The notes under the pieces: generated by a model
Told to the model about the DNA's origin: nothing
Databases searched by the model: none
Seen by the model: the letters and a program-made list of their open reading frames with translations, nothing else
Made by a program: the position numbers and the translations under genes
Shown: positions 8,100 through 48,415 of the stretch, piece after piece
Layout: the number at the start of each line of letters is the position of its first letter
Numbering within the stretch: position 1 is the stretch's first letter
Assembly (NCBI GenBank): GCA_036012755.1
Contig: DASCPX010000016.1
Coordinates: 170,599 to 234,598, forward strand
Direction: 5' to 3'
DNA from: Myxococcota bacterium
GTDB lineage: Bacteria > Myxococcota_A > UBA796 > CAJQPC01
DNA: 64,000 nt

Positions 8100-10001
8100 G
8101 TGCTGTTGATCCTGCTCAGTTGCCTGACGGCGCCGGCTTCCTACCGGGCCCTCGTCCGCGACGTCATCGACGCCGACGGGGATGGCTTCTACGACGAGGA
8201 ACAGTGGGCTGGAGACGAGCACCTCGACGACCTCGACCTGCTCCCAGGGGATTGCAACGACGACGACCCGTTGGTGAACCCGGACGCGGAGGAGATCTGC
8301 GACGGCGTCGACAACGACTGCGATGGTGGGACCGACGAGGACCTCGAGGAGCTCGTCGGCTGGTACATCGACGATGACCGGGACGGCTTTGGCGACCCCG
8401 ACCAGCCCCTCGGGGCCTGCCCCTTCCCGGACAACGCGGTGGAGGACGACACGGACTGCGACGACGCCGACGCCGGTGTCTTCCCCGGCGCCGCAGAGGC
8501 CTGCAACGGCGTCGACGACGACTGCGACGGCGAGCCCGACGATGGCGCGATGATCACCTGGTACGAAGACCCGGACGCCGACGGCTACGGCTCCGGGACG
8601 GCGACGGAGACCTGCGACCCCGGCGAGGGCTACGCCCAGGAGCCCGGCGACTGCGACGAGTCGGACCCCGACATCAACCCTGGCGAGACCGAGGTCTGCA
8701 ACGACGGCATCGACAACGACTGCGACGAGACCACCGACTGCCGCTGGTCTGGGGTGGTGTCCGCCGAGACCCTCGACATTGTCTACGGGGAGGTCGACGG
8801 GGACTCATTCGGCGCCCGTCTGGCATTGGGTGACATCGACGGCGCAGCCGCCAACGACCTGCTGGTGAGTGCAGCTGACGCGTGGGTAGAGGGCGAGGAG
8901 CCAGGTAAGGTCTATCTCTTCAAGGATGGCTTGGCGGCCACCGCCACGGACGCCCACAGCATCTTCATCGGCCCCGAAGACCAAAGCGGATTCGGAGTTG
9001 GCGTCGACCTCTTCGATCTTGACGGAGACTCTCGCGATGAGGTGATCGTGGGTGGAGACCGCGCTGGCGGAACTGTTCACGTGTTCACGCGGCCGTGGAA
9101 CGAGCTGAGCGAGGCCTCGACTGCGACGACGGTGTTCACGCCGTCGGGCAGCTCGGGGCGGTTCGGACACGCCGTAGCTGGCTTCGTCGACATCGACGGA
9201 GCCGGGACACCTGGAATTGGTGTGGGCGCCATCTCCGCGTCCACCACGGGCGGGATCTATGCTGTCCCGTATCAGGGCAGCGGCGAGTTCGACCCCGTGA
9301 GCACGGGCACGCTCGTCCTGGGAGAGGGCGACGGCGACGAGCTCGGTGAGGTGGTCACCCGGGGAGATCTCGACGGCGACGGAGTTCCCGAGTTGTTGGC
9401 TTCAGCTCCCGGCTCTGATCGGGTCTCGGACGAAGGGGGAGCGGCCTACGTGTTCGAGCTTCCGCTGTCCTCGACCGACATCGGCGATGCACGGTCCGTC
9501 ATCGGAGGCGCCATCGAGAACGGCCGCCTCGAGGGCATCAACATCTCCGACCTGGACGACGACGGCGTAGACGACCTCTTCCTCGGCGCGCCGGCTACAG
9601 GCTGGGATCCGGCAGGGACCTTGTATGTCTTCACCGATCTGGAGTCAGGGGCTGTTTCGACGGCGACCGCGGACTTGAGGGTCGACGGAGAGACCGCCTA
9701 CGGCGGTTTCGGCTATCGGGGCCTCGTGCTCGACCTCGACAACACGGGCGGGCCGGATCTGGCTGTCGCTGCCTCTTTGGAGGGGGCTGTCTACCTGTTC
9801 TATGACGCAGCCGCGTCGGGCGTGCTCACCGCAAGCGATGCAGACGGCCATGTCGAGCTCACCTCGACGCAGAAGCTCCCGCTCGTCGCGACGCAGGCCT
9901 GGTCCCCCGACGGACAGACGCTGGTGTTTGGATGCAAGACCTGCGTGCTCGATTCCGCCAAGACCGGGGCTTTCCTCTGGCTGGATGCGTCAGGCCCGTG
10001 A
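8100..10001 (+). CDS. Lipoprotein with repeated putative metal-binding (MopE-like DCDD) motifs and FG-GAP/integrin-alpha-like repeats
   Basis: MLLILLSC; three GDCxDxDxxVxPxAxExCxGxDxDCD-type motifs; GDLDGDGVPELLASAP-type repeats. Confidence 0.85.
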   Translation: MLLILLSCLTAPASYRALVRDVIDADGDGFYDEEQWAGDEHLDDLDLLPGDCNDDDPLVNPDAEEICDGVDNDCDGGTDEDLEELVGWYIDDDRDGFGDPDQPLGACPFPDNAVEDDTDCDDADAGVFPGAAEACNGVDDDCDGEPDDGAMITWYEDPDADGYGSGTATETCDPGEGYAQEPGDCDESDPDINPGETEVCNDGIDNDCDETTDCRWSGVVSAETLDIVYGEVDGDSFGARLALGDIDGAAANDLLVSAADAWVEGEEPGKVYLFKDGLAATATDAHSIFIGPEDQSGFGVGVDLFDLDGDSRDEVIVGGDRAGGTVHVFTRPWNELSEASTATTVFTPSGSSGRFGHAVAGFVDIDGAGTPGIGVGAISASTTGGIYAVPYQGSGEFDPVSTGTLVLGEGDGDELGEVVTRGDLDGDGVPELLASAPGSDRVSDEGGAAYVFELPLSSTDIGDARSVIGGAIENGRLEGINISDLDDDGVDDLFLGAPATGWDPAGTLYVFTDLESGAVSTATADLRVDGETAYGGFGYRGLVLDLDNTGGPDLAVAASLEGAVYLFYDAAASGVLTASDADGHVELTSTQKLPLVATQAWSPDGQTLVFGCKTCVLDSAKTGAFLWLDASGP

Positions 10002-10579
10002 GGCTACTGGCGCTGGCCTGCCACCCGACGTCCGACGCTGAGCTCATCGCAGAGTCCATCGCAGAGCTCACGGCAGGCCGTCCGAAAGCCGCCGCGGCCA
10101 TCTGCCTTCAGGTTTCGCAAACCCAGGCAGCGGCAGAGTGCGCGTGGAGCGTGGCCGCTGTCGTTGCCGAGAGCGATCCGGCAGCAGCCACAGCAATCTG
10201 CCGGACTCTCTCCGGGGCACACGCCGACGAGTGCGCATTCGTAGTGGCAGAGGCATCGCAAGACCCTGAGCTCTGCTCGGGCACCGGTGGACTCGAGGTG
10301 AAGTGCCAGCTCCACTTCTACAGGGACGGGCTGAGCGCATGGGTGCCTCCGGACGCCCGCGTCGGCCAGGTTGATGGGCTTGCGCAGGAACACATGACTG
10401 CGTTGGGGCTAGCGGTGGAGACCGAGGCCGCCTGGTTCAGGACCTACCGGTACGTCCTCGCCCACACGGCAGAAGACACCACCACCGAAGAATGTCAGAC
10501 GCTTGGACCGATTCGCGCAAGGGCGTGTGAGCGAGCTCTGGAGATGGACCAGGCGCGCCCTGGCACGCACCGCCCCTAG
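9998..10579 (+). CDS. Hypothetical Cys-rich helical lipoprotein
   Basis: GTG start overlaps the upstream stop (GTGA); MRLLALAC; periodic A..IC...ECA motifs. Confidence 0.6.
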   Translation: MRLLALACHPTSDAELIAESIAELTAGRPKAAAAICLQVSQTQAAAECAWSVAAVVAESDPAAATAICRTLSGAHADECAFVVAEASQDPELCSGTGGLEVKCQLHFYRDGLSAWVPPDARVGQVDGLAQEHMTALGLAVETEAAWFRTYRYVLAHTAEDTTTEECQTLGPIRARACERALEMDQARPGTHRP

Positions 10580-10860
10580 CCGCAGCTCTCGTACCACTCC
10601 GGGTCTTCGGGCTCCGGGAAGGGCTCGTCGGGGTCGATGCAGTTCTCTGTGTAGTCCTTCACCCACTCCTTGACCTCGGCGCGCGGCACCGGGCTCGGGT
10701 TCTCGGCGCAGGCCGCGTAGGGGCCCTCTTCGTAGAGCGCCATCCAGTCGTCCTGGCAGTCGCGCCAGGGTTGCTCCTGCTCGCACTTGCAGTGCGCCTT
10801 CGTGAGATCCGACCAGTAGTCGTCGACCGTGTAGGCGCAGGCCAGGAGGAGGAAGAGCAC
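10576..10860 (-). CDS. Small Cys-rich lipoprotein
   Basis: MLFLLLAC from GTG 10860 (alternative start 10875); several Cys; strong codon bias. Confidence 0.65.
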   Translation of the reverse strand: MLFLLLACAYTVDDYWSDLTKAHCKCEQEQPWRDCQDDWMALYEEGPYAACAENPSPVPRAEVKEWVKDYTENCIDPDEPFPEPEDPEWYESCG

Positions 10861-10938
10861 GGCGCCCACTAACACCTCGGAGCGCCTCGTCTATCGGGCA
10901 TCACCGCGAGCGCGGAGACCCCTGCCCTGTTCGAGCCC

Positions 10939-11496
10939 TCAGGTCTGGGACAGCGCCTGCAGGGCGAAGGCCGTCTCGCTCGGTGCCAGCTCACCCCTGG
11001 CGCTCAGGGCCGCGATCTCGAGCCGCCTCAGGAAGGGATGGTCCGGCATCTGCTCCAGCGCTGGTCTCAGCACGGCGAGCGAGGCAGCGGGCCGGTCGTC
11101 GCGCAGCAACCTCACGGCGGCCTCGCGGGTGGTGTCCGCTTGGACCCGATCCCAGACGGAGGGGACCGCCGCCTCCCGCACGATCCTCAGCCACTCGGCC
11201 AGGCGCTGCGGGTCATAGAGGCAGTCCAAGGCCTCCTCGACGACCTTCTGGGCTTCTGTCGACCAGGAGGTCCTGGTACGGAGGGCCTCGAGCAGTCGAC
11301 GCTGGAGCACATGGGGGCGCCACAGCGCGTGTGGATCCGCCGCCACTTCGGGCAGGAGCGCCAGCGGAGAGAACAGCAGCAAGGCCTCGCGGCGTCGATC
11401 CGGAGAGAAGAGCTCCAGCATGTTCACGTCATTCATGGCGCGGCAGGCAGTGGACCTCTCACGGGTCCGAACGAGAAGACGAGCGAATGCGGTCAT
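10939..11496 (-). CDS. Hypothetical helical protein coupled to the RAYT-like gene
   Basis: ATG overlaps the transposase stop (ATGA 11493-11496); C-terminal TPR-like helix pair; a later start is possible. Confidence 0.5.
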   Translation of the reverse strand: MTAFARLLVRTRERSTACRAMNDVNMLELFSPDRRREALLLFSPLALLPEVAADPHALWRPHVLQRRLLEALRTRTSWSTEAQKVVEEALDCLYDPQRLAEWLRIVREAAVPSVWDRVQADTTREAAVRLLRDDRPAASLAVLRPALEQMPDHPFLRRLEIAALSARGELAPSETAFALQALSQT

Positions 11497-12245: not shown

Positions 12246-12351
12246 GGCCGCCCACAACGCAAGTCCTGCGCCACACGGGATCCCGCATACTTGTAGCGTC
12301 GGCGGTGGCGATTCCGGCGGAACGCGGTCACCCAGCCGGCGACACCTCGCC

Positions 12352-12595: not shown

Positions 12596-12634
12596 GTGAC
12601 CTCGACCCAGGTCCACCAGAGACCCGGCCGCTGC

Positions 12635-14656: not shown

Positions 14657-14697
14657 GGTGTCGGTCTATCCCACCGAGCGACCAGGAACTGACCGGG

Positions 14698-15940: not shown

Positions 15941-16507
15941 GTGCTGCTCCTCTTCCTTGCATGCCAGCCAAGCGCCGATCCTCACTGGGTCGCGATGCAG
16001 ACATGCCTAGCCATGCCGGGTCTGTACATGGACGGAGCCTCTCAGGCGCTGGCCAGCCGGGCCGTGGCGCAGGAGGAGCTCGAGATCTGGCGCGGTGACG
16101 CCAGCTACGGCGTCGAGGGCTACGGGCCGGTCTACGAAGAGCTCGGGCTCGAGGGCGTCGCCGTCATCCGCAGCAACTCCCTCTGCTCGGTCGACGAGGT
16201 CAGCGACTCCACCGCTACGGTCACGCGAAAGGAGCCCGACATCGAGGCGATGGACCCCTGGAAGATCAAGGAGGTCTGGAAGCTCGAGCTCGTGGCGCGA
16301 ACCCACACCTTCGACATCGGGCCCTCTGATGAGGGCTACCGCGCCTTCCTCGGCCTGAGATCGAAGCGTGGCCTCGCCCTGTCCTCGGAGCTGCTGGTGG
16401 CCCAGGGCCGCTTCGACGAGGCCGTCGAGGAGTACCGCGCGCTCCACGCCGAGTTCCCCGACCCGCGCATCCTCTGGCGCATCCGCCAGATCGAAGCGAA
16501 GCGGTAG
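15941..16507 (+). CDS. Hypothetical lipoprotein
   Basis: MLLLFLAC; strong codon bias. Confidence 0.7.
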   Translation: MLLLFLACQPSADPHWVAMQTCLAMPGLYMDGASQALASRAVAQEELEIWRGDASYGVEGYGPVYEELGLEGVAVIRSNSLCSVDEVSDSTATVTRKEPDIEAMDPWKIKEVWKLELVARTHTFDIGPSDEGYRAFLGLRSKRGLALSSELLVAQGRFDEAVEEYRALHAEFPDPRILWRIRQIEAKR

Positions 16508-17224
16508 TCACTCCTCCAAGAGCGCGAACTCGTCGAAGTAGACCCCGCCGTTGCCATCGAAGCAGCCGGGGTCCTGGGCCTTGCACTGCCAGAAGATGAG
16601 CACGGCCTGCAGGATCGCGCTGTCTGTCGGAGCCGTGCCCTTCGCGGTCAGCTCGTGCCAGGTGCCGGTCGCCGAGTCCTTCGTGATCGGGTCGCTCTCC
16701 GCTTCGCCGAGGAGCTCGCCGTAGCCCTCCGAGTAGAACTTCAGCTCGAGCTGGGCGTAGGTGTGCGTCGCGGTCAGGGGGTCGTCTTCGTGGTGCCAGC
16801 CAGTAGCCGACAGCGTGTAGACCGAGCCCGCGGTGGCAGTCGTCTCCTGGTAGATCGCCGTGTCGTTCTCCACGCCCTCGTCCAGCCACTCCCCGTAGAG
16901 CTTCAGCGACTGCGAGCCCTCCGGCGCCGCGAAGGTGTCGGTGCTGTTGAAGAGGGTGTCGCCGGTCGCGACGATCTCGTAGTTGTCCTGGTCCGCCGTG
17001 TAGATCAACCAGTCGGCGAAGCCATCCTCGAAGCCGGGGTTCGAGAGCAGGTTGAGATCCGTGTCGGCGTCGGCGTCGGCGTCCGTGTCGCTGTCCGTGT
17101 CGCTGTCCGTGTCGCTGTCGGCGTCGCTGTCCGAGTCCGAGTCCGTGTCCGCGTCTGTCTCCGAAACGAGCCCGGAATCGAGGGCGTTCAGGCCGGTGCA
17201 GGCCCACAACAGAGCGAGTGTCAT
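16508..17224 (-). CDS. Lipoprotein with Asp-rich (DT/DS/DA) linker and carbohydrate-binding-module-like jelly-roll domain
   Basis: MTLALLWAC; DTDSDSDSDADSD repeat; NLLSNPGFEDG...VYFDEFAL. Confidence 0.8.
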   Translation of the reverse strand: MTLALLWACTGLNALDSGLVSETDADTDSDSDSDADSDTDSDTDSDTDADADADTDLNLLSNPGFEDGFADWLIYTADQDNYEIVATGDTLFNSTDTFAAPEGSQSLKLYGEWLDEGVENDTAIYQETTATAGSVYTLSATGWHHEDDPLTATHTYAQLELKFYSEGYGELLGEAESDPITKDSATGTWHELTAKGTAPTDSAILQAVLIFWQCKAQDPGCFDGNGGVYFDEFALLEE

Positions 17225-17271: not shown

Positions 17272-18432
17272 ATGCTGCTTCTCCTGATGGCCTGCAACGG
17301 CGACACGGATCCCATCTACGAGGAGCTGGACAGCGATCCCTACGTTCCCTGGCCCGACTCCGGCGACGACGGGACCGACGAGGACGGGGACGGGTGGTCT
17401 GTCGAAGAGGGCGACTGCGACGACGACGACATCTACATCCACCCTGGTTGGGAGGAGTCCGACCAGGAGGGCAACCACACCGACGGCAAGGACAACGACT
17501 GCGACGGCACCATCGACGAGACCTTCCGGGGACTCGTCGTGCTCCAGCAGGGGCGCTGGGATCTCGGTACCAGTTCCAGGATCGTGCTCGTCGACAGCTT
17601 CGGCGAGACAGAGGAGGAGGTCGAGTTCCTCGATCTGAACGTCCAGCCCATCCAGTTCCAGGACAACTCGGGCAAGTGGTACGACTTCACCTTCGAGCTG
17701 GCCCCAGGTGTCTTCGACGGCTGGGCCGTGCTCGGCGAGGATCGGACCACCCACGGACGCCTCATGGTCGAGGTCAGCGAGACCGGCGAGGTCTCCCAGC
17801 TCGTCGACTTCAGCGACGCCGAGGCCTACCCCGGCGGCGCCTGGGGGATCGACGTCCACCCCGACGGCTACTACCTCGTCGCTGGCCTGACCGTGCTCTA
17901 CAAGGTCGACCCGAGCGGGCAGGTCGAGACCGTCGCGGAGTTCCTCGACACCGACGGCGAGACCCCCCTGATGCTCGCCTTCGAGGTCGGTGTGGACAAC
18001 ATCACCGGTCAGATCGCGGTCTTCGGCTACTACGGCGGCGCGGCGCTGATCGATCCCGAGACCTTCGAGGTGACCTGGGTCATCCAGACGGACTTCGACA
18101 ACATCACCCACAACATGTGGTCAGCCTCTCACTGGGACACCCGCGGCGGCTGGTACGCCGGCGGCCAGGACTCGGAGGGGTGGAAGGTCTTCCGGCTGAA
18201 CGAGACCAACAGCGAGTGGGTCGAGAAGGCCGTCTTCGACGAGTCGTGGGAGCCTCACGCGATGACCGTCGACACGGTCTACGGCGAGTACTTCATGTCC
18301 GCCTACGGTGGCCAGTACCCCGTCGTCTGGGAGCTCGACGCCGAGACCGGCGAGCAGCCCAGCCAGTTCTTCGCGTCCCCTCACAGCGGCACCTACTTCC
18401 TGGACATGTGGGACCTCACGACCCGGTACTGA
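17272..18432 (+). CDS. Lipoprotein with DCDD metal-binding motif and probable beta-propeller
   Basis: RBS GGAGG; MLLLLMAC; DEDGDGWSVEEGDCDDDDIYIHPG...DNDCDGTIDE; beta-strand repeats. Confidence 0.8.
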   Translation: MLLLLMACNGDTDPIYEELDSDPYVPWPDSGDDGTDEDGDGWSVEEGDCDDDDIYIHPGWEESDQEGNHTDGKDNDCDGTIDETFRGLVVLQQGRWDLGTSSRIVLVDSFGETEEEVEFLDLNVQPIQFQDNSGKWYDFTFELAPGVFDGWAVLGEDRTTHGRLMVEVSETGEVSQLVDFSDAEAYPGGAWGIDVHPDGYYLVAGLTVLYKVDPSGQVETVAEFLDTDGETPLMLAFEVGVDNITGQIAVFGYYGGAALIDPETFEVTWVIQTDFDNITHNMWSASHWDTRGGWYAGGQDSEGWKVFRLNETNSEWVEKAVFDESWEPHAMTVDTVYGEYFMSAYGGQYPVVWELDAETGEQPSQFFASPHSGTYFLDMWDLTTRY

Positions 18433-21498: not shown

Positions 21499-21900
21499 TC
21501 ACTCGCCGAGGCTCCAGAGGCCTTCGATGAGCGCGCAGTCGAGGCTGGATTCCTGGGCACCGGTGGCCCGGATCCAGTCGATCAGCTCGTCCATGGGGGC
21601 ATCGGGGAGGACATCACCCTCCTGCAGGCTCACCGCGAGGGCCTTGCCCTTGTCGGTGGTGACCTTGGCGTCGGCCAGGGCGGCGTCGGTCTCGGCGTCG
21701 GTCTCGCCAGACTCGGTGATGGCCACGCAGAGGGCCTCGACGTCAGCCTTCTCTCCGCTGGAGGCGGAGGCTGCGGGTGCGTCCACTGCTGTGGGAACGT
21801 CGATCGAGATGTCCTCGACCTCTCCACCACCACATGCAAGGGCCATTGCGACCAGGGCGGCGCCACCAATGAGGGTACGGATCTTCACTACAACTCCCAT
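21499..21900 (-). CDS. Hypothetical lipoprotein with canonical-length signal peptide
   Basis: KIRTLIGGAALVAMALAC; acidic mature part. Confidence 0.65.
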   Translation of the reverse strand: MGVVVKIRTLIGGAALVAMALACGGGEVEDISIDVPTAVDAPAASASSGEKADVEALCVAITESGETDAETDAALADAKVTTDKGKALAVSLQEGDVLPDAPMDELIDWIRATGAQESSLDCALIEGLWSLGE

Positions 21901-22841: not shown

Positions 22842-23408
22842 GTGCCGCTGCTGCTCGCACTCTTCGCCTGCCAGACCCGCTCTGGCGACCTCATGACGAT
22901 GTTCACGCCCAAGGCCGTCGAGACCTCGGCCGAAGCGGTGGTCTCGGGCGCGGAGCCGATCATCGACGAGGCCTTCGCGGCGCGTCGTAGCCAGGAGTGC
23001 ATCGACAATCCGCTCGACTGTCCCGAGGCCACGGAGACGGACGAGACGGCCCCTGTTGTGGAGGCCGTCGAGGCCGTGGTCCTGGACGCGGTCGATGCCG
23101 TGTTCGAGGGTGTCCAGCTGGATACGGAGGAGCCCCCGGCGGCGCTGCCGACTCCCACGGGTCTCCCGAGCGAGCCTGCCTGGGGTGTTCGGCTGCTCCA
23201 GACCCTGCCGAGCGCCCAGCCTCCGCGCGCGGCGCTGGGCTTGTCCAACGGCGACGAGATCATCGTCGCTCCGGGCTCGATGATCGAGGCCGCCGGCCTT
23301 GTGGTGATCGCGGTCGGCGACCAGACCGTGCAGCTGGCGAAGGTCGAGCCGGTCGGAGACCACGCCGAGATCGAGACCGTCACCCTCCACGCCCTCTATC
23401 CGCGCTAG
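22842..23408 (+). CDS. Lipoprotein with PilP/GspC-HR-like C-terminal domain
   Basis: MPLLLALFAC; VRLLQTL..PRAALGLSNGDEIIVAPGSMI..LVVIAVGDQTVQL resembles the PilP beta domain. Confidence 0.55.
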   Translation: MPLLLALFACQTRSGDLMTMFTPKAVETSAEAVVSGAEPIIDEAFAARRSQECIDNPLDCPEATETDETAPVVEAVEAVVLDAVDAVFEGVQLDTEEPPAALPTPTGLPSEPAWGVRLLQTLPSAQPPRAALGLSNGDEIIVAPGSMIEAAGLVVIAVGDQTVQLAKVEPVGDHAEIETVTLHALYPR

Positions 23409-35305: not shown

Positions 35306-36627
35306 GCTGGACCGGAGACCACCAGGGACTCGCGCTCTCGGATCAGCGGCGGAGCTGGACCTATTCCCAGCTCCGGGACGAGGCCGCGCGCTGGGCCGGC
35401 ACCCTCGCGGCCCGCGGCGTCGAGGCAGGAGACCGCGTGGCGCTGCTCGCCAGGAACCGCGGCGAGTTCATCGTCCTGCTGCTTTCCTGCGAGCACCTCG
35501 GCGCGATCTTCCAGCCGATGAACTGGAGGCTGTCCGAGGCAGAGCTCGACTGGCAGATCGCGGACTCGACCCCCCGAGTCGTGCTGCGCGACGCGGACCT
35601 CGACGAGGGCCCCGGCGACGCGGCGATCCGCGGTGACGAGCGCGCCGAGACCGAGCCCTGGATGCTGCTCTACACCTCTGGCACGACCGGCAAGCCGAAG
35701 GGAGCCCTGATCACTCACGGGCAGGTCCGGGCCAACGCCGCGGTCACCCTCGGGGCCTGCGAGCTGACCGCCGAGGACAGCACGCTGACCTTCACGCCCC
35801 TGTTCCACACCGGCGGCCTGAACTGCCTCACGACGCCGCTGTTGCGCGTCGGTGGTCACGTGGTCCTGCGCCCCTCTCTGGAGGACGCGCTTGATGTCAT
35901 CCGGGACGAGGGCATCACGCTGTTGACCGGCGTGCCGACGATCTACCAGTTCCTCTCCGAGCGTCCCGGCTTCTCCGAGGCGATGGGTTCTGTTCGGGAC
36001 GCCCTCTGCGGCGGGGCCCCGCTGTCGCTGACGCTGCTCCAGACCTACCTCGAGCTCGGCATCCCGCTGCGGCAGGGCTTCGGCCTCACGGAGGTGGGGC
36101 CCAACTGCTTCTCCACGCCACCGCAGCGCGTGCGCGAGAAGCTCGGGACCGTCGGTCGACTCGTGCCCGGGCTGGAGGCCCGCCTCGTCGACGGCGAGCT
36201 TCAGCTGCGCGGCCCGATGGTCTTCGGCGGCTACTGGGGCCACCCTCCCCACGAGGGCTGGTTTCACACCGGCGACGTCCTGCAGGTCGACGACGAGGGC
36301 TTCTGGTCCGTCACAGGGCGCAAGAAGGAGATGTTCATCTCCGGCGGAGAGAACGTCTACCCGGCCGAGGTCGAGGCAGCGCTCTATGCCTGCGGCGGCA
36401 TCGCCCAGTGCGCGGTCATCGGCGTGGAGGACGAGCGCTGGGGCGAGGTCGGACGAGCCTTCGTCGAGCCCAGTCCGGGGGCGACGCTCTCGCCAGAGGC
36501 TCTCCACGGTGCCCTCCAAGGACGCCTGGCCCGCTACAAGCAGCCCAAGCGCATCGAGGTGCTGGCTTCGCTGCCCCGCACTCCCAGCGGCAAGATCGAC
36601 AAGCAGCGACTCGGAGAGATGCCGTGA
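35302..36627 (+). CDS. AMP-forming acyl-CoA synthetase
   Basis: YTSGTTGKPKG, GFGLTE, WFHTGD, GRKKEMFISGGENVYPAEVE, PRTPSGKIDK. Confidence 0.93.
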   Translation: MSWTGDHQGLALSDQRRSWTYSQLRDEAARWAGTLAARGVEAGDRVALLARNRGEFIVLLLSCEHLGAIFQPMNWRLSEAELDWQIADSTPRVVLRDADLDEGPGDAAIRGDERAETEPWMLLYTSGTTGKPKGALITHGQVRANAAVTLGACELTAEDSTLTFTPLFHTGGLNCLTTPLLRVGGHVVLRPSLEDALDVIRDEGITLLTGVPTIYQFLSERPGFSEAMGSVRDALCGGAPLSLTLLQTYLELGIPLRQGFGLTEVGPNCFSTPPQRVREKLGTVGRLVPGLEARLVDGELQLRGPMVFGGYWGHPPHEGWFHTGDVLQVDDEGFWSVTGRKKEMFISGGENVYPAEVEAALYACGGIAQCAVIGVEDERWGEVGRAFVEPSPGATLSPEALHGALQGRLARYKQPKRIEVLASLPRTPSGKIDKQRLGEMP

Positions 36628-37106
36628 TCCTGCTCCTTCTGGCCTGCCTTCCAGAGGATGTCGCGCTCGACGACTCCGTCCCGGTCCTCGACGACACCGC
36701 CGCCGCGAGCACCGAGCCCCTCTACGGCCAGTGGATCTCCGACGGAGCGGACATCAGCCCGCTGTTTTCCGGCGCACCCTTCGAGTACCTGAGCATCGAC
36801 GCTGTCTTCGGGGACGAGGGCTACGAGGTGGTCGGCCACACGGCAGACGACGACTACACCTTCGCCGGGACCTTCACGATCGACACCTCGAGCACTCCAG
36901 CCTCGATCGAGCTCATCCAGACCCAGCCCGGAAACGCCGTGGCCCGGGGCATCTACCTCGTCGAGGACGAGGTGCTCACCTACGAGGTCGTCCAGGTCGA
37001 GCCGGACTATGGCTACGCGCCCCCGACCCCGGAGGAGGGCTTCGGCTCCACCACCGGCCCCAACCTCTCAGAGGGCGACAACGTGCAGGTCTACCGCAGA
37101 CCGTGA
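36624..37106 (+). CDS. Hypothetical beta-rich (lipocalin-like) lipoprotein
   Basis: GTGA-coupled; MILLLLAC; LYGQWIS strand followed by further beta strands. Confidence 0.7.
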   Translation: MILLLLACLPEDVALDDSVPVLDDTAAASTEPLYGQWISDGADISPLFSGAPFEYLSIDAVFGDEGYEVVGHTADDDYTFAGTFTIDTSSTPASIELIQTQPGNAVARGIYLVEDEVLTYEVVQVEPDYGYAPPTPEEGFGSTTGPNLSEGDNVQVYRRP

Positions 37107-38521
37107 TCTGGATCTGTGCCGCATTCGCGCGAGAGCCGGTCGAGGCCCTGAGGCCCGTCGAGGAGCCCCCGGATGTGGGCCTCGACTTCGTGGGGCTCGC
37201 CCAGGTCAAGACCTCGGGCACGAACGTGGCCACCACGAACGCCTTCCTCGATGGGCAGGTCATCGGCGTGATCGACGGGGACTCGGGCGCAGACGCCGGG
37301 GACTCCCTGAGCCACTTCAGCGAACAGCGCGTGGCGGCTTTTCTGGGCTACCGTCCGCCGCTGTTGGATGGCCACGCGGCCCTTCACGGCGGCTTCGAGA
37401 TCGACTTCGCCTTTGGAGACGCCGCCTACGGCATCGGGGGCAACACCGGCGGCGGCTTCGGCGGCGACCAGGTGAACCTCCAGACCCGCCGCCTCTACGT
37501 CGAGGTCGACAGCCAGCTCTTGCGACACGAGCAGGACTGGAGGGTGGGCCTGCACTTCGTGAGCGACGGCGTCGGACTCCCGGAGGAGGGCCTCGACGCC
37601 ATCTTCCGCAGCGGAGCACGCGGCACGGTCTTTGCCAGCGAGGCAGCCGGCGCCTCGCTCCACGGGCAGCTCCCCGAGCGCTTGCGATACAGGCTCGGGG
37701 TCTACAAGCTCGTCGAGAACGCCAGCTCGCAGCCGGACGACGTCACCCTGGGCATGGGGGATGTCGAGCTGCAACCCGGCTGGCGCACGCGGGTGGGCCT
37801 GCACGCCTGGTACCTGCGAGATCGCTCGGATGGCCAGGGCGGCGCCCTGGGCGTGGGGCCTTCATCCTCGACCTCGGCGCTCCAGGGGGGCCCCTCTCTG
37901 GACGTCGATGGGGACGTAGACGTCACCTGGCTGGGGGCCGACGCCGGCTGGAACGCGGACCTGCGCCGCGGTGACCTCGGAGCCCACGGCGTCGCCTTGG
38001 CTCACCTCGGCTCCCTCGGCGACGTCGACGCCCAGGGCTTCAGCGCCAACGGCGAGGCCCGCTGGCGTTGGACCGCGGGCAAGGGCAGCGTGCTCCGGGC
38101 AGAGGTCCTCTATGCCACTGGCGATTCCGTGTCTGATGTCGGCTACACCGGCGTCCTCACCGGAAACACCTGGGGCATCGCGGGGGCCAACCACACCACC
38201 CACGGCACCCTGTTGCTGCACCCGGATCTCTTCTCTATCAACCGCCAGGTGAGCCACACCGGCGACCTGGCGGCCTCTGGGCGGGGCCAGCTCAGCTTCA
38301 CCGGGTCACTGGGCTACGACCCCGTCCCAGACCGCCTGACCGTCCAGTTCGGCGGTGGTCACGCGAGCTATGGCGGCGGGACCTCGGCCCAGGAGATCAA
38401 CCTCCGGGTGCTCGGCGAGCCCTACCTGTTCATGCGGACCGGTCTCTCCGGCGCCTACCTCGCGAGGCCGGGCACGGACGCCTGGATCGTCTACGCCTCC
38501 TTCGACTGGCTGGTGATCTGA
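37103..38521 (+). CDS. Probable outer-membrane beta-barrel/porin
   Basis: GTGA-coupled; short signal MIWICAAFA; GFEIDFAFGD, NLQTRRLYVEV, amphipathic strands to the C-terminus. Confidence 0.65.
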   Translation: MIWICAAFAREPVEALRPVEEPPDVGLDFVGLAQVKTSGTNVATTNAFLDGQVIGVIDGDSGADAGDSLSHFSEQRVAAFLGYRPPLLDGHAALHGGFEIDFAFGDAAYGIGGNTGGGFGGDQVNLQTRRLYVEVDSQLLRHEQDWRVGLHFVSDGVGLPEEGLDAIFRSGARGTVFASEAAGASLHGQLPERLRYRLGVYKLVENASSQPDDVTLGMGDVELQPGWRTRVGLHAWYLRDRSDGQGGALGVGPSSSTSALQGGPSLDVDGDVDVTWLGADAGWNADLRRGDLGAHGVALAHLGSLGDVDAQGFSANGEARWRWTAGKGSVLRAEVLYATGDSVSDVGYTGVLTGNTWGIAGANHTTHGTLLLHPDLFSINRQVSHTGDLAASGRGQLSFTGSLGYDPVPDRLTVQFGGGHASYGGGTSAQEINLRVLGEPYLFMRTGLSGAYLARPGTDAWIVYASFDWLVI

Positions 38522-39450
38522 TGCCCCTGAACGCCTTGTTCTTCGGCCTGGCCTGCGCGCCCCGGTATGGCTCCGCGCCACCGCTGGCGCCATCCGAGCT
38601 CCACGCGCCCCTCCCCGTGTCCCACGTCGATCTCGACGGTGTCCGTGTCGCCTACGCGAGCGCAGGGGAAGGCACGGCCCTGGTCTTCCTGCACGGCCTG
38701 TCCTCCTACATGGGCTACTGGGAGCACCAGCTCCCACACTTCGCACAGTCCCACCAGGTCTTCGCGCTCGACCTCCCGGGCTACGGGATGTCGTCACGCC
38801 CGGACGCGCCCTACACGCCTCCCTGGTTCGCCCAGACGGTGGTGGACTGGATGGACGAGGTGGGCTTGTCCTCAGCGGTCTTCGTGGGCCACTCGATGGG
38901 CGGACAGGTCGCCCTGACCCTCGCGCTCGAGCACCCAGAGCGTGTAGACGCCCTCGTGCTCGCTGCCCCCGCCGGAATCGAGACCTTCTCTCCGGGCGCC
39001 GCTGACTGGATGAAGGGCTGGTGGACCGAGTCCAGGGCCATGGAGTCCACGGAAGAGGACATCCGCGCCACGATGACCACCATGGTGTTCAACGTCCACG
39101 ACGAGGGCGTCGAGCGGCTCATCGAGGAGCGGGTTCGGCTGGGTCGTCACGAGGACTTCGGCGGCACCTCGGTGGCCGTCTCCCGCAGCATCGCGGGCAT
39201 GCTCGACCACCCGGTCGCCGGGCGCCTGTCCGAGGTCTCCGCCCCGACGCTCATCGTCTTCGGCGAGGACGATCGCATGATCCCGAACCCGGTCTTCACC
39301 GGCGGCCGCACCTCGGCCATCGCGAAGCAGGGGCAGCGGTCCATTCCGGGCTCCTCGCTGGTCCTGGTCCCGAGGGCCGGCCACACCGTGCACCACGACG
39401 ACCCCGGCGCATTCAACGACGCAGTCGAGCGCTTCCTGGAGGGCCTGTGA
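38521..39450 (+). CDS. Lipoprotein alpha/beta hydrolase
   Basis: GLAC lipobox; FLHGLSS, GHSMGG, GEDDRMIP, AGHTVH. Confidence 0.92.
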   Translation: MPLNALFFGLACAPRYGSAPPLAPSELHAPLPVSHVDLDGVRVAYASAGEGTALVFLHGLSSYMGYWEHQLPHFAQSHQVFALDLPGYGMSSRPDAPYTPPWFAQTVVDWMDEVGLSSAVFVGHSMGGQVALTLALEHPERVDALVLAAPAGIETFSPGAADWMKGWWTESRAMESTEEDIRATMTTMVFNVHDEGVERLIEERVRLGRHEDFGGTSVAVSRSIAGMLDHPVAGRLSEVSAPTLIVFGEDDRMIPNPVFTGGRTSAIAKQGQRSIPGSSLVLVPRAGHTVHHDDPGAFNDAVERFLEGL

Positions 39451-41123
39451 TCTGGATCGCGACCGCGCTGGCGACCACCGACTTCACCGGTACGCCCGTC
39501 ACCACCTACACCGGCGAGGAGACCTTCCTCCAGGACGGCTCCGTGCAGCTGTGGGGGCAGATCGAGCTCCACGAAGACGGAGACCGCCTGCTGTTTGTGC
39601 AAGAGGACTTCAACGACTCGCTGGAGTGGCCAGCGGACAGCGACTGGGCTCCGTGGATCCACCAGATGTTCGGCACGGGGGACCCTCACTCCTCGAACTT
39701 CCTGCTGCACTCGGCCCCGCTGGAGCCCATCTCGGAGGGCACGCCCATCCTGCTCGTCCCCGGGGCCGGAGACAACGGCAGCCGTGGCTTCATCGTGATG
39801 GCCTCGCGCCTGGACGGCAGCGGGCGGCCCGTGTTCGTCCTGACCTTCGCCCACCCCCACGGCGATGTCTTCATGCAGGCCGAGATCGTAGCGGATGCCA
39901 TCGAGCGCATCAGACAGCGGCGAGGCGTCTCCCAGGTCGACGTGGTAGGCCACAGCAAGGGAGCCATCGCCGCCGCCGTCTACGCCAGCAACCACTCTTC
40001 GGCCTCCTGGCCGAGCAGCGCCTATGAGCAGGTCGGGACCGAATATGCGAACGATATTCGCCGGTTCGTTGCGATCGGTGCTCCCCTGGACGGCATCGAC
40101 ACCGCCTACCGGTGGCCGGCCCAGAACTGGCTCTCTCTGGAGAGCGACGAGGCCTTCTCGCCCTCGTCCTGGAGCACCTACTACCCCTACACGACTGCCA
40201 ACCTGTACGTGACGCAGGACCTCTCCGAGCAGGACCACCTCTCTGATGGGGGCGACCTCTTTCCAGGCCACCGCCAGCTGCTTCGGCGCCAGGCGCACGC
40301 CCTGCCGGGTGAGTCCTTCCTCGGTCCGTACTCGGTCCAGCAGGACTGGTACACGACCTACGAGGGCGGCCTTGGCTACGTCAGCTGGAGCGAGGGCATC
40401 GACGCGGCCATCGACGACGCCGGCGACTTGCTGGCGGCGCTCGAGGAAAACGGCGTCGATCCAGAGGTCGAGCTCTTCGTGCTCGCCGGAGAGAACCCGC
40501 TCTTGCACAACGGCGCTGAGTACCAGTGGATCGCAGCCTTTGGAGAGAGCTGGGTGGACGTGGCCACCGCTGGCCTCGACGCGTGGGCCGAGCTGCTGGC
40601 AGAGGCCGCGGAGGAGGCTGGAGTCGTGGACATCGACCCGGACGAGCTCCGTGGGCTGGTGCAGGGCAAGCTCGTGCTCGGCGAGATCAGCGGGCCCTCC
40701 GACGGCCTGGTGTTCCTCTCCAGCGCGACGCGGGTCGAGACCCTCACCGGCCGAGGAGCGAGCGTCGGAGAGCTCCGCGTGGTCGACCTGGCCCACCTCG
40801 ATCTGCTCTATGCCTCTGAGATCACCGGACAGATCCTCATCGACGCCGGCGAGGCCGATCCAACGGAGGACGGCTGGATGCGGGCCGTCGGCGAGCGGTA
40901 TGTCGAGGCGGACACCCTCGGCTGGGTCGAGACGGTCCTCGCCGATCCCGACACCGACGAACCCGACATCGACGACACGGGGTTCGTCGAGGACGACGAC
41001 CCTGGCGATCCGGACGGCTCCGGGCGCCTTGCCCGCAACTGTGATGGATGCGCCAGCGGCACCGGGGCCCTCGGCGCGGCCTGGCTGGGGCTCCTGGTGC
41101 TGCGGAGGAGACGATGGAGTTGA
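39447..41123 (+). CDS. Exported lipase/esterase-like hydrolase with MYXO-CTERM-like C-terminal anchor
   Basis: PILLVPG, GHSKG, SDGLV, HLDL; tail GCASGTGALGAAWLGLLVLRRRR. Confidence 0.8.
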   Translation: MIWIATALATTDFTGTPVTTYTGEETFLQDGSVQLWGQIELHEDGDRLLFVQEDFNDSLEWPADSDWAPWIHQMFGTGDPHSSNFLLHSAPLEPISEGTPILLVPGAGDNGSRGFIVMASRLDGSGRPVFVLTFAHPHGDVFMQAEIVADAIERIRQRRGVSQVDVVGHSKGAIAAAVYASNHSSASWPSSAYEQVGTEYANDIRRFVAIGAPLDGIDTAYRWPAQNWLSLESDEAFSPSSWSTYYPYTTANLYVTQDLSEQDHLSDGGDLFPGHRQLLRRQAHALPGESFLGPYSVQQDWYTTYEGGLGYVSWSEGIDAAIDDAGDLLAALEENGVDPEVELFVLAGENPLLHNGAEYQWIAAFGESWVDVATAGLDAWAELLAEAAEEAGVVDIDPDELRGLVQGKLVLGEISGPSDGLVFLSSATRVETLTGRGASVGELRVVDLAHLDLLYASEITGQILIDAGEADPTEDGWMRAVGERYVEADTLGWVETVLADPDTDEPDIDDTGFVEDDDPGDPDGSGRLARNCDGCASGTGALGAAWLGLLVLRRRRWS

Positions 41124-41839: not shown

Positions 41840-41843
41840 CAGG

Positions 41844-43076
41844 TCAATATTGCTCGATGTTTTCATCGATCCAGGCCAGGCGCGCGGGGATCCACTCCCG
41901 GATCTTCTCAACCTCTGCGTCGTAGTCTTCGACCACGGGCAGGTAGCCTCCGAGGAAGTCGATGTCGTCCCAGACCCAGACCTCGAAGTTCTCGTAGGCG
42001 GCGTCACCGAGGAGCTCGCGCTGGGCCTCGAAGCGCGCCAGGGCTGCCTCGTCGGACAGCGTGCCCTCGCGGAGCTCGAACCAGCGCGCCGCCAGGGCCT
42101 CTGAGAAGCCCTCTGCGCTGGTCATCCTCGCCACCCACGTCGGTCTGTACAGGATCCAGCCGGTCGGCACGACGTTGTCGTTGTAGGTCGGCTGGCCGAA
42201 GGTGAGGTCGAGGTCCCAGGGGGTGAAGGCCATCAGGCCGGAGGCGTCCCGCCACAGGTGCACGCTCAGGTAGTAGGCGTCGTTGTTCTTCATGAACTCC
42301 TGCAAGAGCACGAAGTCGATCGCCGAGTCCCGATCGAGCACGTCGAAGATGGCGTCGGGATCGTCCAGGATCGCCGCCTGCCAGGAGGCGAGGATCTGTT
42401 GGATGGCGCTGATCTCCTCGGTGGTCGGCGCCTCTGGGTGGACGGGCGCCCAGGTGCCGAAGCCGACAGCGTCGTTCGGGTAGATCCCGCCCTGGTCGTC
42501 GAGCTTCAGCACGAAGCCCTCTTCGTCGATGTCGATGCGGGCGGCGTCCCGCTTGACCCGCTCGACCAGGAAGTAGATGCCCCAGTCGGCTCCGTCCAGG
42601 CGCAGCTGGCAGGTGCGGCTCTCTGGCCCGTAGTGCTCGGGGCTCCAGTCCTGGTACAGATCGTAGCCGTACTTGTTCCGCGTCAGGGCCCGGTCGATCC
42701 AGGCACCGTTGAGCACCCAGTCGCTCTCTGCGCCCATGCCGAAGAGATCGACCTCGAGGGCCTCTCCGTCCCTGCGCAGCTCGACGGCGTACTGCTTCTT
42801 CGGGAAGCCAGAAGAGCTCCGCCCGCGGATCTCGACCCCTGCCTCCCCGTCGAAGAGCACGAGCCCCTCGGCGTCGGCGATCTCGAGATCACAGTCGATC
42901 TTCGGCTCGTCGGGGATCGCCTGTCCGCAGTCCAGCTCGATGCGGCAGATGCCCTCCGCGACGCCCGGGACGTCCTCGACTCCGCTGTCGTCCGGGTCCT
43001 CGATGGGGATGGAGTCGGAGTCCACCGGCAGCGAGGGCACGCTCGGGTCGGTGCAGGACAACAAGGCGAGGACCAT
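41844..43076 (-). CDS. CotH kinase-family lipoprotein
   Basis: MVLALLSC; IRGRSS..FPKKQY, DRALTRN, YFLVE, NNDAY, PWDLDLTFG. Confidence 0.9.
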   Translation of the reverse strand: MVLALLSCTDPSVPSLPVDSDSIPIEDPDDSGVEDVPGVAEGICRIELDCGQAIPDEPKIDCDLEIADAEGLVLFDGEAGVEIRGRSSSGFPKKQYAVELRRDGEALEVDLFGMGAESDWVLNGAWIDRALTRNKYGYDLYQDWSPEHYGPESRTCQLRLDGADWGIYFLVERVKRDAARIDIDEEGFVLKLDDQGGIYPNDAVGFGTWAPVHPEAPTTEEISAIQQILASWQAAILDDPDAIFDVLDRDSAIDFVLLQEFMKNNDAYYLSVHLWRDASGLMAFTPWDLDLTFGQPTYNDNVVPTGWILYRPTWVARMTSAEGFSEALAARWFELREGTLSDEAALARFEAQRELLGDAAYENFEVWVWDDIDFLGGYLPVVEDYDAEVEKIREWIPARLAWIDENIEQY

Positions 43077-43643: not shown

Positions 43644-44318
43644 TCAGTCTTCGGCCGGGCTCGCGAAGTAGGCGTCGAGCCCCGCGTCCACCGCCCGGGC
43701 GAAGCGGTCCATCGTCTCCTCCTGCTGCCAGGCCTCGACCTCGGCGGGATCCCAGGCGTGGTGGGTCTCGATGATCACGCTCGGCATGGTCGGGCGGCGC
43801 AGCATGCGAAGCCCTCGCCGATCGAGGAAGACGCCGGGGGTCCCTTCCGCGTCGTAGGCGGCCTTGTAGTCGCGGCCGTCGTAGGCCACGAAGTCCTCGG
43901 CGAGCATCCCGTCTGCCAGCGAGCGTGCGAGGCGCAGACGCCCGTCCCGATCCTCTGGCTCGTCGGAGACCAGGATGGTGAAGCCGGGGTGGCCCAGGTT
44001 GCGCATGCACCCATCGACCTCGACGCCCTCCGACGTGGCCCGGGCGTCGGAGTGGAGCGACAGGAAGACCTCTGCGTCCCCTGCTGACGCCACCCGCTCG
44101 GCGTAGCCCGTCTGGTCCTCGCCCTCGCGGGTGAGGCGGACCTCGTACTCGGGCTCCAGGCGCTCCTCGAGCTCCAGGGCCACCCGGAGCATCTCGTCCT
44201 GCTCGGAGAGGCAGGTGGCGCCTGTGTTCCCGGGGTTGTCGGGCTCGCCGTGGCCGGGGTCGATGAGCACGCGGTGGGGACTGGCGAGAGCGACGGGGAT
44301 CAGCAGGAGCATGGACAC
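43644..44318 (-). CDS. N-acetylmuramoyl-L-alanine amidase (Amidase_3)
   Basis: VLIDPGHG, EQD, VRLTR, FLSLHSD, MPSVIIE. Confidence 0.9.
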   Translation of the reverse strand: MSMLLLIPVALASPHRVLIDPGHGEPDNPGNTGATCLSEQDEMLRVALELEERLEPEYEVRLTREGEDQTGYAERVASAGDAEVFLSLHSDARATSEGVEVDGCMRNLGHPGFTILVSDEPEDRDGRLRLARSLADGMLAEDFVAYDGRDYKAAYDAEGTPGVFLDRRGLRMLRRPTMPSVIIETHHAWDPAEVEAWQQEETMDRFARAVDAGLDAYFASPAED

Positions 44319-44394
44319 GTCGACAGCCTACGGAGCGCTGCGGTTCCATGCTTGCCATCACCACGCCGGTGGAGTGAGCTACGAGCGTGCTTGC

Positions 44395-45148: not shown

Positions 45149-45298
45149 CGGGTCCTATCTCCTGCAACACGGGCACGCAGTCACCTCGAGACGGCGCGGG
45201 GGTCGAGCTGGAGCTCACCCACCTCTACTGGCACTACTGACGCGCAACATTGCGGGATTCGATCGGCTAATGGTTCGCGCCCCCGGACGCAGGACCCC

Positions 45299-47724: not shown

Positions 47725-47728
47725 GTCC

Positions 47729-48415
47729 TCAGAAGAGCTCGCCGCGAACGCCCGCCGAGACGAGGAACCCGCGGTACGTCGCCCAGTCGGTCTCTGGCGC
47801 GTAGCCGCCCATCGCCCGGACGAACCACGAGCCGTGGTCGTAGGTGTAGCCAGCGACCGGCGTCAGCCCGAGCAGTCCGAGGCGGGCCCGATGCCCGCCG
47901 TAGATGACCGACAAACCGAGCTCCTGGAACTCGCCGCGGGCGGGATCCCAGTAGCGCTCGCCGTCCCAGTCGGACTCCCAGCTGTGGGCGGCGAAGGGCG
48001 TTCGGGTCGCATCGACAACGACGCGCTCGCCCCCCGCTTCGAGGGCCCAGCCGATGCCGATGCCGGTGCGATCGTCGTACTCGTCGCTCTCGGAGAGCTT
48101 CAGCCAGGCGCCGCTCTGGAGGTGGAAGCCGAAGCGGATGTGCTCCTGGTCCACGATCAGGGTGCGCACTCCGAAGTGTGGGAGGACGCCCATGTCGTAG
48201 TCGTCGTAGGCGAGCCCGATCGTCAGCGTCGCGCGATCGTGGAGGTCGACGTGGGTCTCCAGCAGCCCCCCCTCGAAGCGCGCGCGGGTGGAAGAGTCGG
48301 TCACCTGGAAGCCGGTCACCGAGGCTGTGACCTCGCCGTCGCTACCGGGCGCGGCGCCTACGAGGAAGGCGCCGGAAGGCACGGCGGCACCTGCAAGAGA
48401 GACCCACAACAACAT
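47729..48415 (-). CDS. Hypothetical exported beta-strand protein
   Basis: MLLWVSLAGA signal; amphipathic strands; terminal Phe. Confidence 0.6.
   Translation of the reverse strand: MLLWVSLAGAAVPSGAFLVGAAPGSDGEVTASVTGFQVTDSSTRARFEGGLLETHVDLHDRATLTIGLAYDDYDMGVLPHFGVRTLIVDQEHIRFGFHLQSGAWLKLSESDEYDDRTGIGIGWALEAGGERVVVDATRTPFAAHSWESDWDGERYWDPARGEFQELGLSVIYGGHRARLGLLGLTPVAGYTYDHGSWFVRAMGGYAPETDWATYRGFLVSAGVRGELF

Follow-up and report, generated by a model that had tools for sequence, protein, structure and literature searches.

Candidate truncated Sec signals: ultrashort, uncharged leaders on exported-type proteins of a Myxococcota bacterium

Canonical bacterial signal peptides are described as having a positively charged n-region, a hydrophobic h-region and either a lipobox or small residues at positions −3 and −1, while the leaders of type IV prepilins (class III) form a separate signal class (PMC9360617, in the part available to us). 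Here we describe N-terminal leaders that depart from this pattern in a 64,000-nucleotide stretch of DNA, called the window below, from a Myxococcota bacterium (assembly GCA_036012755.1, contig DASCPX010000016.1, positions 170,599 to 234,598; G000:C16:170599-234598 in our numbering). Of the 52 complete genes called in the window, ten start with an ultrashort, uncharged leader ending in a lipobox Cys (Met, 4-10 Leu-rich residues and [AGS]-Cys); four more were flagged with a short uncharged leader ending in AxA, and a fifth of this kind (48415) was recognised by eye. We consider it likely that these leaders are genuine N-termini acting as truncated Sec-type signals for signal peptidase I (SPase I) or signal peptidase II (SPase II).

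The closest described counterpart of the leaders ending in Cys is the Sec/SPase II signal of the E. coli Lpp type, with which they share an N-terminal hydrophobic stretch running to a lipobox Cys; genes for Lgt, LspA and Lnt are also present. They differ in having no positive n-region, the Cys at residues 7-10, an h-region of 4-8 residues, Leu at −2 in 62% of cases, and more Leu than the canonical leaders of the same genome. PROSITE-style rules place the lipoprotein Cys about 15-35 residues from Met1. The leaders ending in AxA resemble Sec/SPase I signals in their core followed by small −3 and −1 residues (MIWIATALA/T, MLFALVLPALAA/Q and MIHLLLAFWIALA/Q, the slash marking the predicted cleavage site) on periplasmic or outer-membrane proteins, but with 9-15 residues in total and no Lys or Arg they differ from the tripartite n-h-c signal (as set out in the same part of PMC9360617).

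With type IV prepilin leaders the short leaders have in common that they are naturally very short, with few residues before the cleavage site. Prepilin leaders are charged, and a dedicated peptidase removes them at the cytoplasmic face, leaving in the protein the long hydrophobic helix that follows, whereas here the leader itself is hydrophobic and an acidic, Pro-rich mature region follows. A further comparison is offered by E. coli signal mutants without n-region charge, which are rescued by a more hydrophobic h-region, and by prl suppressors. They illustrate that charge is dispensable if hydrophobicity is raised, and the short leaders are more Leu-rich than the canonical ones. However, the E. 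coli mutants are laboratory-made, have an h-region of normal or greater length and usually export more slowly; the leaders described here are shorter and are the natural majority form, in hundreds of genes. In the literature searched (mostly titles and abstracts), we came across no account of bacterial signal peptides that are ultrashort and uncharged by nature.

Genome-wide enrichment and composition

The assembly comprises 6.73 Mb in 250 contigs, with 68.4% G+C and an estimated completeness of 96%. High-GC DNA is rich in spurious open reading frames (ORFs), and the window has 289 ORFs of at least 80 amino acids; a gene caller was therefore built from simple codon log-odds, trained on long ORFs and used with a calling threshold of 15. 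It called 5708 genes, spanning 92% of the genome. For a set of 5564 genes the longest possible ORF was taken, i.e., from the first ATG, GTG or TTG after the upstream stop. A short-lipobox pattern, defined as Met, then 4-11 residues without charge, most of them hydrophobic, and then [AGS]-Cys, the Cys being residue 14 at the latest, occurs at 435 of these 5564 first starts (7.8%). As a chance control, the same pattern was sought at 74,430 start-like codons internal to genes, where it occurs 117 times (0.16%); the enrichment is about 50-fold. The Cys is residue 7 in 73 of the 435 leaders, residue 8 in 159, residue 9 in 99, residue 10 in 69 and residues 11-14 in 35.

Because this pattern excludes charge, the count was redone with a lipobox pattern silent on the preceding residues. 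With the Cys at 7-10, 326 of 331 leaders are uncharged, five contain Lys or Arg and none contains Asp or Glu; at the internal control positions (n = 141) the corresponding numbers are 74, 19 and 48. A proteome-wide histogram of Cys position, proposed as a check in the initial annotation of the window, is bimodal: an ultrashort, uncharged mode at Cys 8 stands apart from a second mode at Cys 15-21 with Lys or Arg (58 genes), the latter resembling ordinary lipoproteins (e.g. MKRLFPLVLVPLLTAC). If any start near the coding onset is allowed, about 800 genes are able to carry the short form and 110-180 the canonical form only.

A broader test, requiring residues 2-7 to be uncharged and at least five of them hydrophobic, selects 655 of the 5564 first starts (11.8%) and 3.6% of internal positions. 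Of these 655 leaders, 379 have a lipobox and 221 are short without one, many ending in AxA at residues 9-15. Leaders of the AxA type were recognised by inspection, with no scoring model; candidates genome-wide number 178 plus 43, and among the 178 the first charged residue is mostly at 10-16.

The lipobox of 809 short leaders has Ala (74%), Gly (15%) or Ser (11%) at −1 and Leu at −3 in 63%, frequencies that are partly imposed by the search pattern; it mostly reads L-L-A-C, with −2 Leu as frequent as given above. Over positions −6 to −2, Leu accounts for 55% of the residues in 757 short leaders and 33% in 126 canonical ones, with mean Kyte-Doolittle values of 3.0 and 2.2, respectively. The first 20 mature residues of the short class are rich in Pro and in Asp and Glu, with a mean net charge of −3.18 that is negative in 91% of cases; the canonical class, at −2.82, is close to this.

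Compared with the described signal classes feature by feature, the short leaders of the Cys class retain the lipobox with its invariant +1 Cys and small −1 residue; the positively charged n-region and the canonical length of SPase II signals are both lacking. By inspection, the leaders at 26791, 37103, 39447, 44318 and 48415 and that of BamA have a hydrophobic core and small −3 and −1 residues, while the positive n-region and the length of about 18-30 residues of SPase I signals are not found, the leaders having 9-15 residues without Lys or Arg. Nor do the uncharged short leaders, which have no Arg, contain the twin-arginine motif of the Tat pathway; a few canonical leaders of the genome show an RRxF-type motif (e.g. 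MKRRDFFKM...). To judge from these features, the short leaders would be Sec-type signals that fail two defining features as usually stated. A large paralogous set of short-leader, lipoprotein-type genes shares the mature N-terminus C-R-N-K-D-(Y/P)...D-S-G (e.g. C63:61203, C137:137259, C14:117733 and C190:75854), often with DGDG-type calcium- or metal-binding repeats after it.

Start sites of the short leaders

All 11 lipobox leaders and five SPase I-like leaders listed in the initial annotation are present in the window (Table 1, in which, as in the text, genes are named by the position of the short start). It stated that most of them cannot be extended upstream; 10860 could gain up to five residues and 48415 seven, all of them uncharged. 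For 10860, the stop-to-stop frame begins at 10890 and contains three possible starts, all giving uncharged leaders of 8-13 residues. The leader MRLLALAC at 9998, the only one with an Arg, is where it was reported to be, albeit in a doubtful gene: the ORF has a codon score of 5.3 over 193 codons, no Pfam match, and an in-frame ATG at 9932.

The short leaders are genuine N-termini, by four lines of evidence: upstream stops, codon usage, initiation signals and public gene calls. In six window genes (17272, 8100, 15941, 43076, 22842 and 10860) an in-frame stop is located 0-30 nt upstream of the short start. In four others (17224, 28158, 38521 and 26791) no ATG, GTG or TTG lies between the upstream stop and the short start, in frames with 43-154 open codons, and at 36624, 37103 and 39447 it is at most two codons away from the onset of coding-type codon usage. 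Genome-wide, 93 of the 435 short-lipobox genes have a stop exactly three codons upstream. For the 403 short starts with at least 30 open upstream codons, the 30 codons upstream score negative in 97% and those downstream positive in 99%; 271 of these starts are no more than five codons away from the coding onset, and 102 coincide with it.

Initiation signals point to the same positions. A TANNNT motif beginning at −12, placed as the −10 box of a leaderless transcript would be, precedes 73 of the 435 short starts (18 at −13 and 0-8 at other offsets), and a Shine-Dalgarno-like motif precedes 191. In a wider set of 722 short starts, 59.4% have at least one of the two signals (with TANNNT at −13 to −11), compared with 45.7% among 3336 other gene starts and 14.6% among 17,282 internal start-like codons. 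Leaderless-type −10 boxes taken separately are found at 125 of the 722 short-lipobox starts, 6 of 111 canonical ones and 231 of the 3336 others, making them 2.5-3 times commoner at short leaders. Six of eight short-leader window proteins occur in public collections with identical first and last residues, and other gene callers therefore agree; the proteins at 8100, 17272, 28158 and 43076 are exact matches.

These data leave little room for the possibility that the real proteins have normal signal peptides and begin further upstream, whether through non-standard starts, stop read-through, frameshifts or a different genetic code. It could be argued that the frame is open for 129-729 nt upstream in five of the 11 window lipobox genes, that long open frames are common in high-GC DNA and that some first-start calls are clearly short false extensions. 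Yet close in-frame stops, upstream codon usage of non-coding type, initiation signals located at the short starts and concurring public gene calls all speak against it, the upstream translations are rich in Arg, Pro and Gly without a hydrophobic core, and TAG, TGA and TAA all end normal genes. We regard an artefact of this kind as highly improbable and already largely refuted. The false extensions are apparent leaders starting MEVxM..., in which an ATG overlapping the GGAGG Shine-Dalgarno sequence (ATGGAGGT...) lies just 5' of the true ATG; genome-wide, the longest-ORF calls in such cases are too long by four residues.

Five of the six close window stops are TAG. A role of TAG as a sense codon was rejected: of the 5708 called genes, 3965 end with TGA, 1581 (28%) with TAG and 162 with TAA, and TAG is therefore an ordinary stop. 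An alternative code with TAG or TGA as sense codons was likewise rejected, as no stop interrupts the matches of SecY, SecA, Ffh, Lgt and LspA to their families. A better explanation of the upstream TAGs is that they open the TANNNT −10 boxes at −12.

A leaderless-mRNA signature can also be seen over all genes, with an in-frame stop exactly three codons before the first start in 559 of 5564 cases and in 198-228 at neighbouring offsets; this stop is usually the TAG or TAA of a TANNNT box at −12. In the window the signature is found at 8100, 14656 (−), 15941, 20835 (−), 23432, 43076 (−), 44318 (−) and 50289. It extends to cytoplasmic genes, e.g. a UvrB-like gene at 14656 (−), named by eye from its N-terminal sequence. 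Among samples of related families of the order (labelled f1 to f7 here), the peak is present in f1, f4 and f7 and not in f3 and f5, although with small numbers and related genomes this is only a lead.

Carrier proteins, homologues and lineage distribution

By their domains, the proteins that carry short leaders are of exported type, and are presumed to be exported. Pfam matches among those of the window comprise an N-acetylmuramoyl-L-alanine amidase (Amidase_3), a sulfatase, a CotH protein, a MopE/FG-GAP protein and two alpha/beta hydrolases. Outside the window, the BamA homologue, read from the earliest start codon in frame, has the N-terminus MIHLLLAFWIALA/QSG directly before POTRA1, and two further Omp85 proteins have uncharged leaders of 15 residues. 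TolB of the same genome has a textbook leader, MKRFAALLLGLLAVAVLPARA. A BamD (YfiO) homologue, at G000:C149:39926-40537 (−), has the uncharged leader MFALLLTLSLPAVAA/KNQ; it contains no lipobox Cys, so the protein would not be a lipoprotein, unlike BamD of E. coli, which is one.

Homologues relate the short leaders to canonical ones. A paralogue of the 8100 protein on contig C70, 33% identical to it across 581 residues, starts with the 16-residue leader MRLAVAASLTLLLSAC, of which residue 9 is aligned to Met1 of MLLILLSC; according to this alignment, MLLILLSC is the C-terminal half of a canonical leader. The amidase at 44318 has an orthologue with the canonical leader MQRLNTVLVCLTALALAPFAQA in a genome of another family of the order (G040), while its orthologues in the window genus have uncharged leaders of 12-14 residues and those in family f4 have MLSLLLLLAC and MLLVLVALAAC. 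Among the relatives in which the BamA leader could be resolved, it is ultrashort and uncharged only in the window genus and in G030 (f4); those of genera g2, g3 and g8 and families f2, f3 and f5 (G036) are Arg-bearing and 21-28 residues long. In several genomes (g4-g7, G031 and f7) the BamA leader lay outside the stretch inspected.

The four-gene operon at 36624-41123 (+) encodes a small lipoprotein-type protein, a putative exported protein, an alpha/beta hydrolase with a lipoprotein-type leader and a second, hydrolase-like, putatively exported protein, with genes overlapping in GTGA and TGATG. It is conserved across three genera, and is present in G002, G012 and G003. All orthologue leaders are uncharged, with 8-17 residues and diverged sequences, while a C/APRY or AxA/T.DF site is found at the same aligned place. 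Those of 36624 are MMFLILAC (G002) and MSTLLFSLALTIGC (G012). Those of 37103, again all uncharged, are MSLLLLALGSAWA/E, MLPLLLAAAAASA/Q and MTLLLLAALAQA/S. For 38521 they are MLHLLLGMGC/APRY, MISALMMGILGC/APRY and MLTLFPLLPLLLALVAC/VPRY, and for 39447 MIWSTLLASTALA/TIDF, MILSLIGLAHA/TSAF and MPLLALIPLALA/TAEY. Retention of the site while the sequences diverge is how functional signal peptides evolve and argues for selection on the leader as such.

The initial annotation had called the pattern lineage-specific, and this is borne out. In a 400-kb sample (265 genes) of G012, of the same family and another genus, 23 lipobox leaders are short-only and 10 canonical-only. In a sample of the same size (315 genes) from G040, which belongs to family f3 and, run through the same pipeline, serves as negative control for the method, two are short-only, both doubtful, and 27 canonical-only. 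The trait is thus dominant in the family of the window and nearly absent from another family of the order. Samples of 16-100 kb, with small counts and crude gene calls, suggest that it prevails in f1 and is uncommon in f3, f5 and f6, with f4 and f7 showing a mixture. A degenerate DNA pattern was calibrated as a per-genome proxy for the trait and dropped, as it can match inside canonical leaders.

Table 1. Genes with short leaders in the window, and two canonical leaders for contrast. Slashes mark predicted cleavage sites; "onset" is the onset of coding-type codon usage.
Feature	Coordinates	Strand	Leader, start codon and domain matches	Start context
Lipoprotein-type gene, MopE metal-binding motifs and FG-GAP	8100..10001	+	MLLILLSC, GTG; PF11617, PF01839	In-frame TAG 9 nt upstream; TAGGAT at −12 (leaderless-type −10)
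Doubtful ORF	9998..10579	+	MRLLALAC	Overlaps upstream stop (GTGA)
Small lipoprotein-type gene	10576..10875	−	MLFLLLAC from GTG 10860; longest MLVGAVLFLLLAC from GTG 10875	In-frame stop 30 nt upstream of 10860
Lipoprotein-type gene	15941..16507	+	MLLLFLAC, GTG; TPR_14 match	In-frame TAG 9 nt upstream; TAGACC at −12
Lipoprotein-type gene	16508..17224	−	MTLALLWAC, ATG	First start codon in 154 open codons; GAGGAGG upstream; onset 4 codons off
Lipoprotein-type gene	17272..18432	+	MLLLLMAC, ATG	TAG directly 5' of ATG (0 nt); GGAGG 5 nt upstream
Lipoprotein-type gene	22842..23408	+	MPLLLALFAC, GTG	TAG 24 nt upstream, no start between; onset at start
SPase I-like leader gene	25112..26791	−	MILLVASAFA/AE, GTG	First start after stop; onset at start
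Sulfatase	26788..28158	−	MILASLAC, ATG; PF00884 from residue 20, E 1.2e-41	First start in 153 open codons; onset at start
Lipoprotein-type gene, first of conserved four-gene operon	36624..37106	+	MILLLLAC, GTG	GGAG upstream; onset 1 codon off
SPase I-like leader gene	37103..38521	+	MIWICAAFA/RE, GTG	Overlaps upstream stop
Alpha/beta hydrolase, lipoprotein-type	38521..39450	+	MPLNALFFGLAC/APRY; PF00561	First start in 128 open codons; overlaps stop (TGATG)
SPase I-like leader gene	39447..41123	+	MIWIATALA/TTDF, GTG	Onset at start
CotH-family protein	41844..43076	−	MVLALLSC, ATG; PF08757, E 3.7e-42	In-frame TGA 9 nt upstream; TGACAAT at −12
N-acetylmuramoyl-L-alanine amidase	43644..44318	−	MSMLLLIPVALA/SPH, GTG; PF01520 from residue 17	TAG 9 nt upstream; TAGGCT at −12
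SPase I-like leader gene	47729..48415	−	MLLWVSLAGA/AV, ATG	Extendable to MQGSGVAMLLWVSLAGA from GTG 48436; both uncharged
Canonical lipoprotein leader (contrast)	21499..21900	−	MGVVVKIRTLIGGAALVAMALAC	
Canonical SPase I-type leader (contrast)	55773..57251	+	MKRGWLLVILFAALAGW...	

Export machinery and possible mode of action

The genome encodes one SecY, one SecA, one Ffh and a full Lnt, together with five Lgt, two LspA and three S26 peptidases. A tandem lspA-lspA-lgt-lgt operon is located at G000:C59:100000-102591 (L047 2944-5646, +), and three further Lgt paralogues are encoded elsewhere. About 1.7 kb upstream of this operon, on the opposite strand, lies a short-leader gene (...MLLLLAC APGVP...; L047 478-1215 (−), also on G000:C59), with a large opposite-strand gene between them.

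The initial annotation had suggested that SecA, SecY, Lgt, LspA or LepB might be altered, and none of the comparisons made here supports this. A specialised LspA was rejected: relatives have one or two copies per genome, tandem or double LspA occurs in canonical families too, and the single-copy genera g5 and g7 show the trait. An Lgt expansion was rejected as well: each of the 41 genomes searched in the order has 3-6 matches, a number that does not track the trait. Among the components named, the comparison at residue level covered SecY, with plug and pore residues numbered by their E. coli equivalents. The residue aligned with pore-ring Ile187 is Ala here, and each of the 28 SecYs examined from the order has Ala or Ser; a pore-ring change was rejected as an explanation, since Ala or Ser is also present in the canonical families f3, f5 and f6. 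Among unrelated SecYs, 25 of 80 have no Ile at this position. The positions of Phe67, Ile82, Ile86, Ile191, Ile278, Phe286 and Ile408 are conserved, with one exception (Phe286 in the canonical G040). The SecY match in the relative G024 (C16:161670-162986, −) contains one in-frame TAG, which may be an assembly error.

These comparisons revealed no changed component to which the leaders could be assigned, and we turn to how they might work with ordinary ones. Leaders ending in L-L-[AGS]-C would be SPase II signals and those ending in AxA SPase I signals, in which the positive n-region has been lost and the h-region, about half of it missing, has been cut to 4-10 Leu-rich residues directly after Met1. 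The single set of SecYEG, SecA and signal recognition particle (SRP) most likely handles them alongside the canonical minority, and processing would then be by Lgt, LspA and Lnt, or by an S26 peptidase. With 7-10 residues, a leader is too short to reach from one side of the bilayer to the other, which means that its N-terminus has to be capable of entering the membrane. The uncharged (formyl-)Met end may do so together with the h-region, the Cys or AxA site reaching the outer leaflet. Shortness and absence of charge would go together because a charged n-region would forbid the N-terminus from entering the membrane, and the extra hydrophobicity may make up for the missing parts.

The scatter of short leaders gene by gene, as seen for BamA, the amidase and the paralogue pair, suggests that truncation happened repeatedly, in a lineage with machinery that would tolerate it. 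A possible aid was frequent leaderless transcription, in which the start codon is at the 5' end of the mRNA and tied to the promoter. A more specific proposal can be put forward only tentatively, and is less likely than not to be right: the Sec and lipoprotein pathways of this lineage might take a formyl-Met-capped stretch of 5-8 mostly Leu residues as a full signal. Too short to be anchored at the cytoplasmic face while crossing the membrane, such a leader would insert N-terminus-first or reside wholly in the lateral gate, engaging the translocon and being presented to Lgt and LspA in a way unlike the textbook hairpin, with an order-wide permissive state and gene-by-gene truncation aided by leaderless transcription tying the start codon to a drifting promoter.

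Several points weigh against the proposal that the short leaders are truncated Sec signals. Export, lipidation and cleavage, like the buried N-terminus and the role of leaderless starts, are what we infer; for the first three the basis is sequence. The gene caller is crude, and hydrophobicity is partly built into the short-leader pattern. Leu at −2 of a lipobox, as common as it is here, is unusual. No Sec, Lgt or LspA system is known to work with leaders of this kind, and neither the Lgt and LspA copy numbers nor the SecY plug and pore residues revealed a machinery change that would explain the tolerance. The acidic early mature region was considered as compensation and rejected; it is common to the short and canonical classes and therefore provides no special compensation. 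Finally, the 4-8 residues before the Cys are below the canonical h-region range (PMC9360617, in the part available to us).

Alternatively, the leaders, although real N-termini, might not be cleavable Sec signals at all, but either tags for the cytoplasmic face of the membrane, perhaps acylated at the Cys, or substrates of an undescribed export or lipidation route that reads Met and a Leu-rich stretch. They are too short for a membrane span and lack the orienting feature of the canonical description (PMC9360617, same part); the five Lgt paralogues and the tandem lspA-lspA-lgt-lgt operon might serve such a route, and two routes would fit the presence of canonical and short classes side by side. 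This is unlikely, however, as carriers such as BamA, the other Omp85 proteins and the peptidoglycan amidase work only beyond the inner membrane, and the leaders have the usual lipobox or AxA ends, aligned with the canonical cleavage sites of orthologues and of the 8100 paralogue. The trait is not reflected in the numbers of Lgt and LspA copies, and no candidate for another translocase was seen, although none was looked for.

Somewhat less probable still is that the leaders are Sec signals dependent on a changed component, be it SecY or SecA with relaxed, prl-like proofreading or a specialised Lgt, LspA or LepB paralogue. In E. coli, SecY prl alleles allow export of proteins whose signals are defective, the trait is confined to a lineage and varies by degrees inside a single order, and the Ala or Ser at the Ile187 position throughout the SecYs examined might be read in this way. 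That residue is shared with canonical families, though, and Ile is often missing from unrelated SecYs, while the other plug and pore positions are conserved, SecY, SecA and Ffh are single and paralogue numbers do not track the trait. Truncated signals read by the ordinary Sec and lipoprotein pathways thus remain the interpretation we prefer. As to the lineage-specific export or lipidation code that the initial annotation had proposed, the leaders are real, non-canonical and located on exported-type proteins; canonical leaders with Lys or Arg coexist with them (TolB and about 60-110 lipoproteins), and the short leaders therefore form a second, predominant class rather than a code that has replaced the canonical one.

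If the short leaders act as proposed, a positive n-region and a membrane-spanning h-region would not be general needs of bacterial Sec export or lipoprotein maturation, and natural signal peptides could be as short as about seven residues. Most of the envelope proteome of the family would escape rules that demand Lys or Arg and a Cys later than residue 14, in this genome about 700-800 lipoprotein-type and about 200 SPase I-type genes of about 5700, by the counts of this analysis. With canonical and truncated leaders in one cell and hundreds of substrates, the bacterium would offer a natural system in which the minimal information read by SecA/SecY, SRP, Lgt, LspA and LepB may be measured. It would test how little protein export needs: Met and 5-12 uncharged hydrophobic residues, about half the textbook length.

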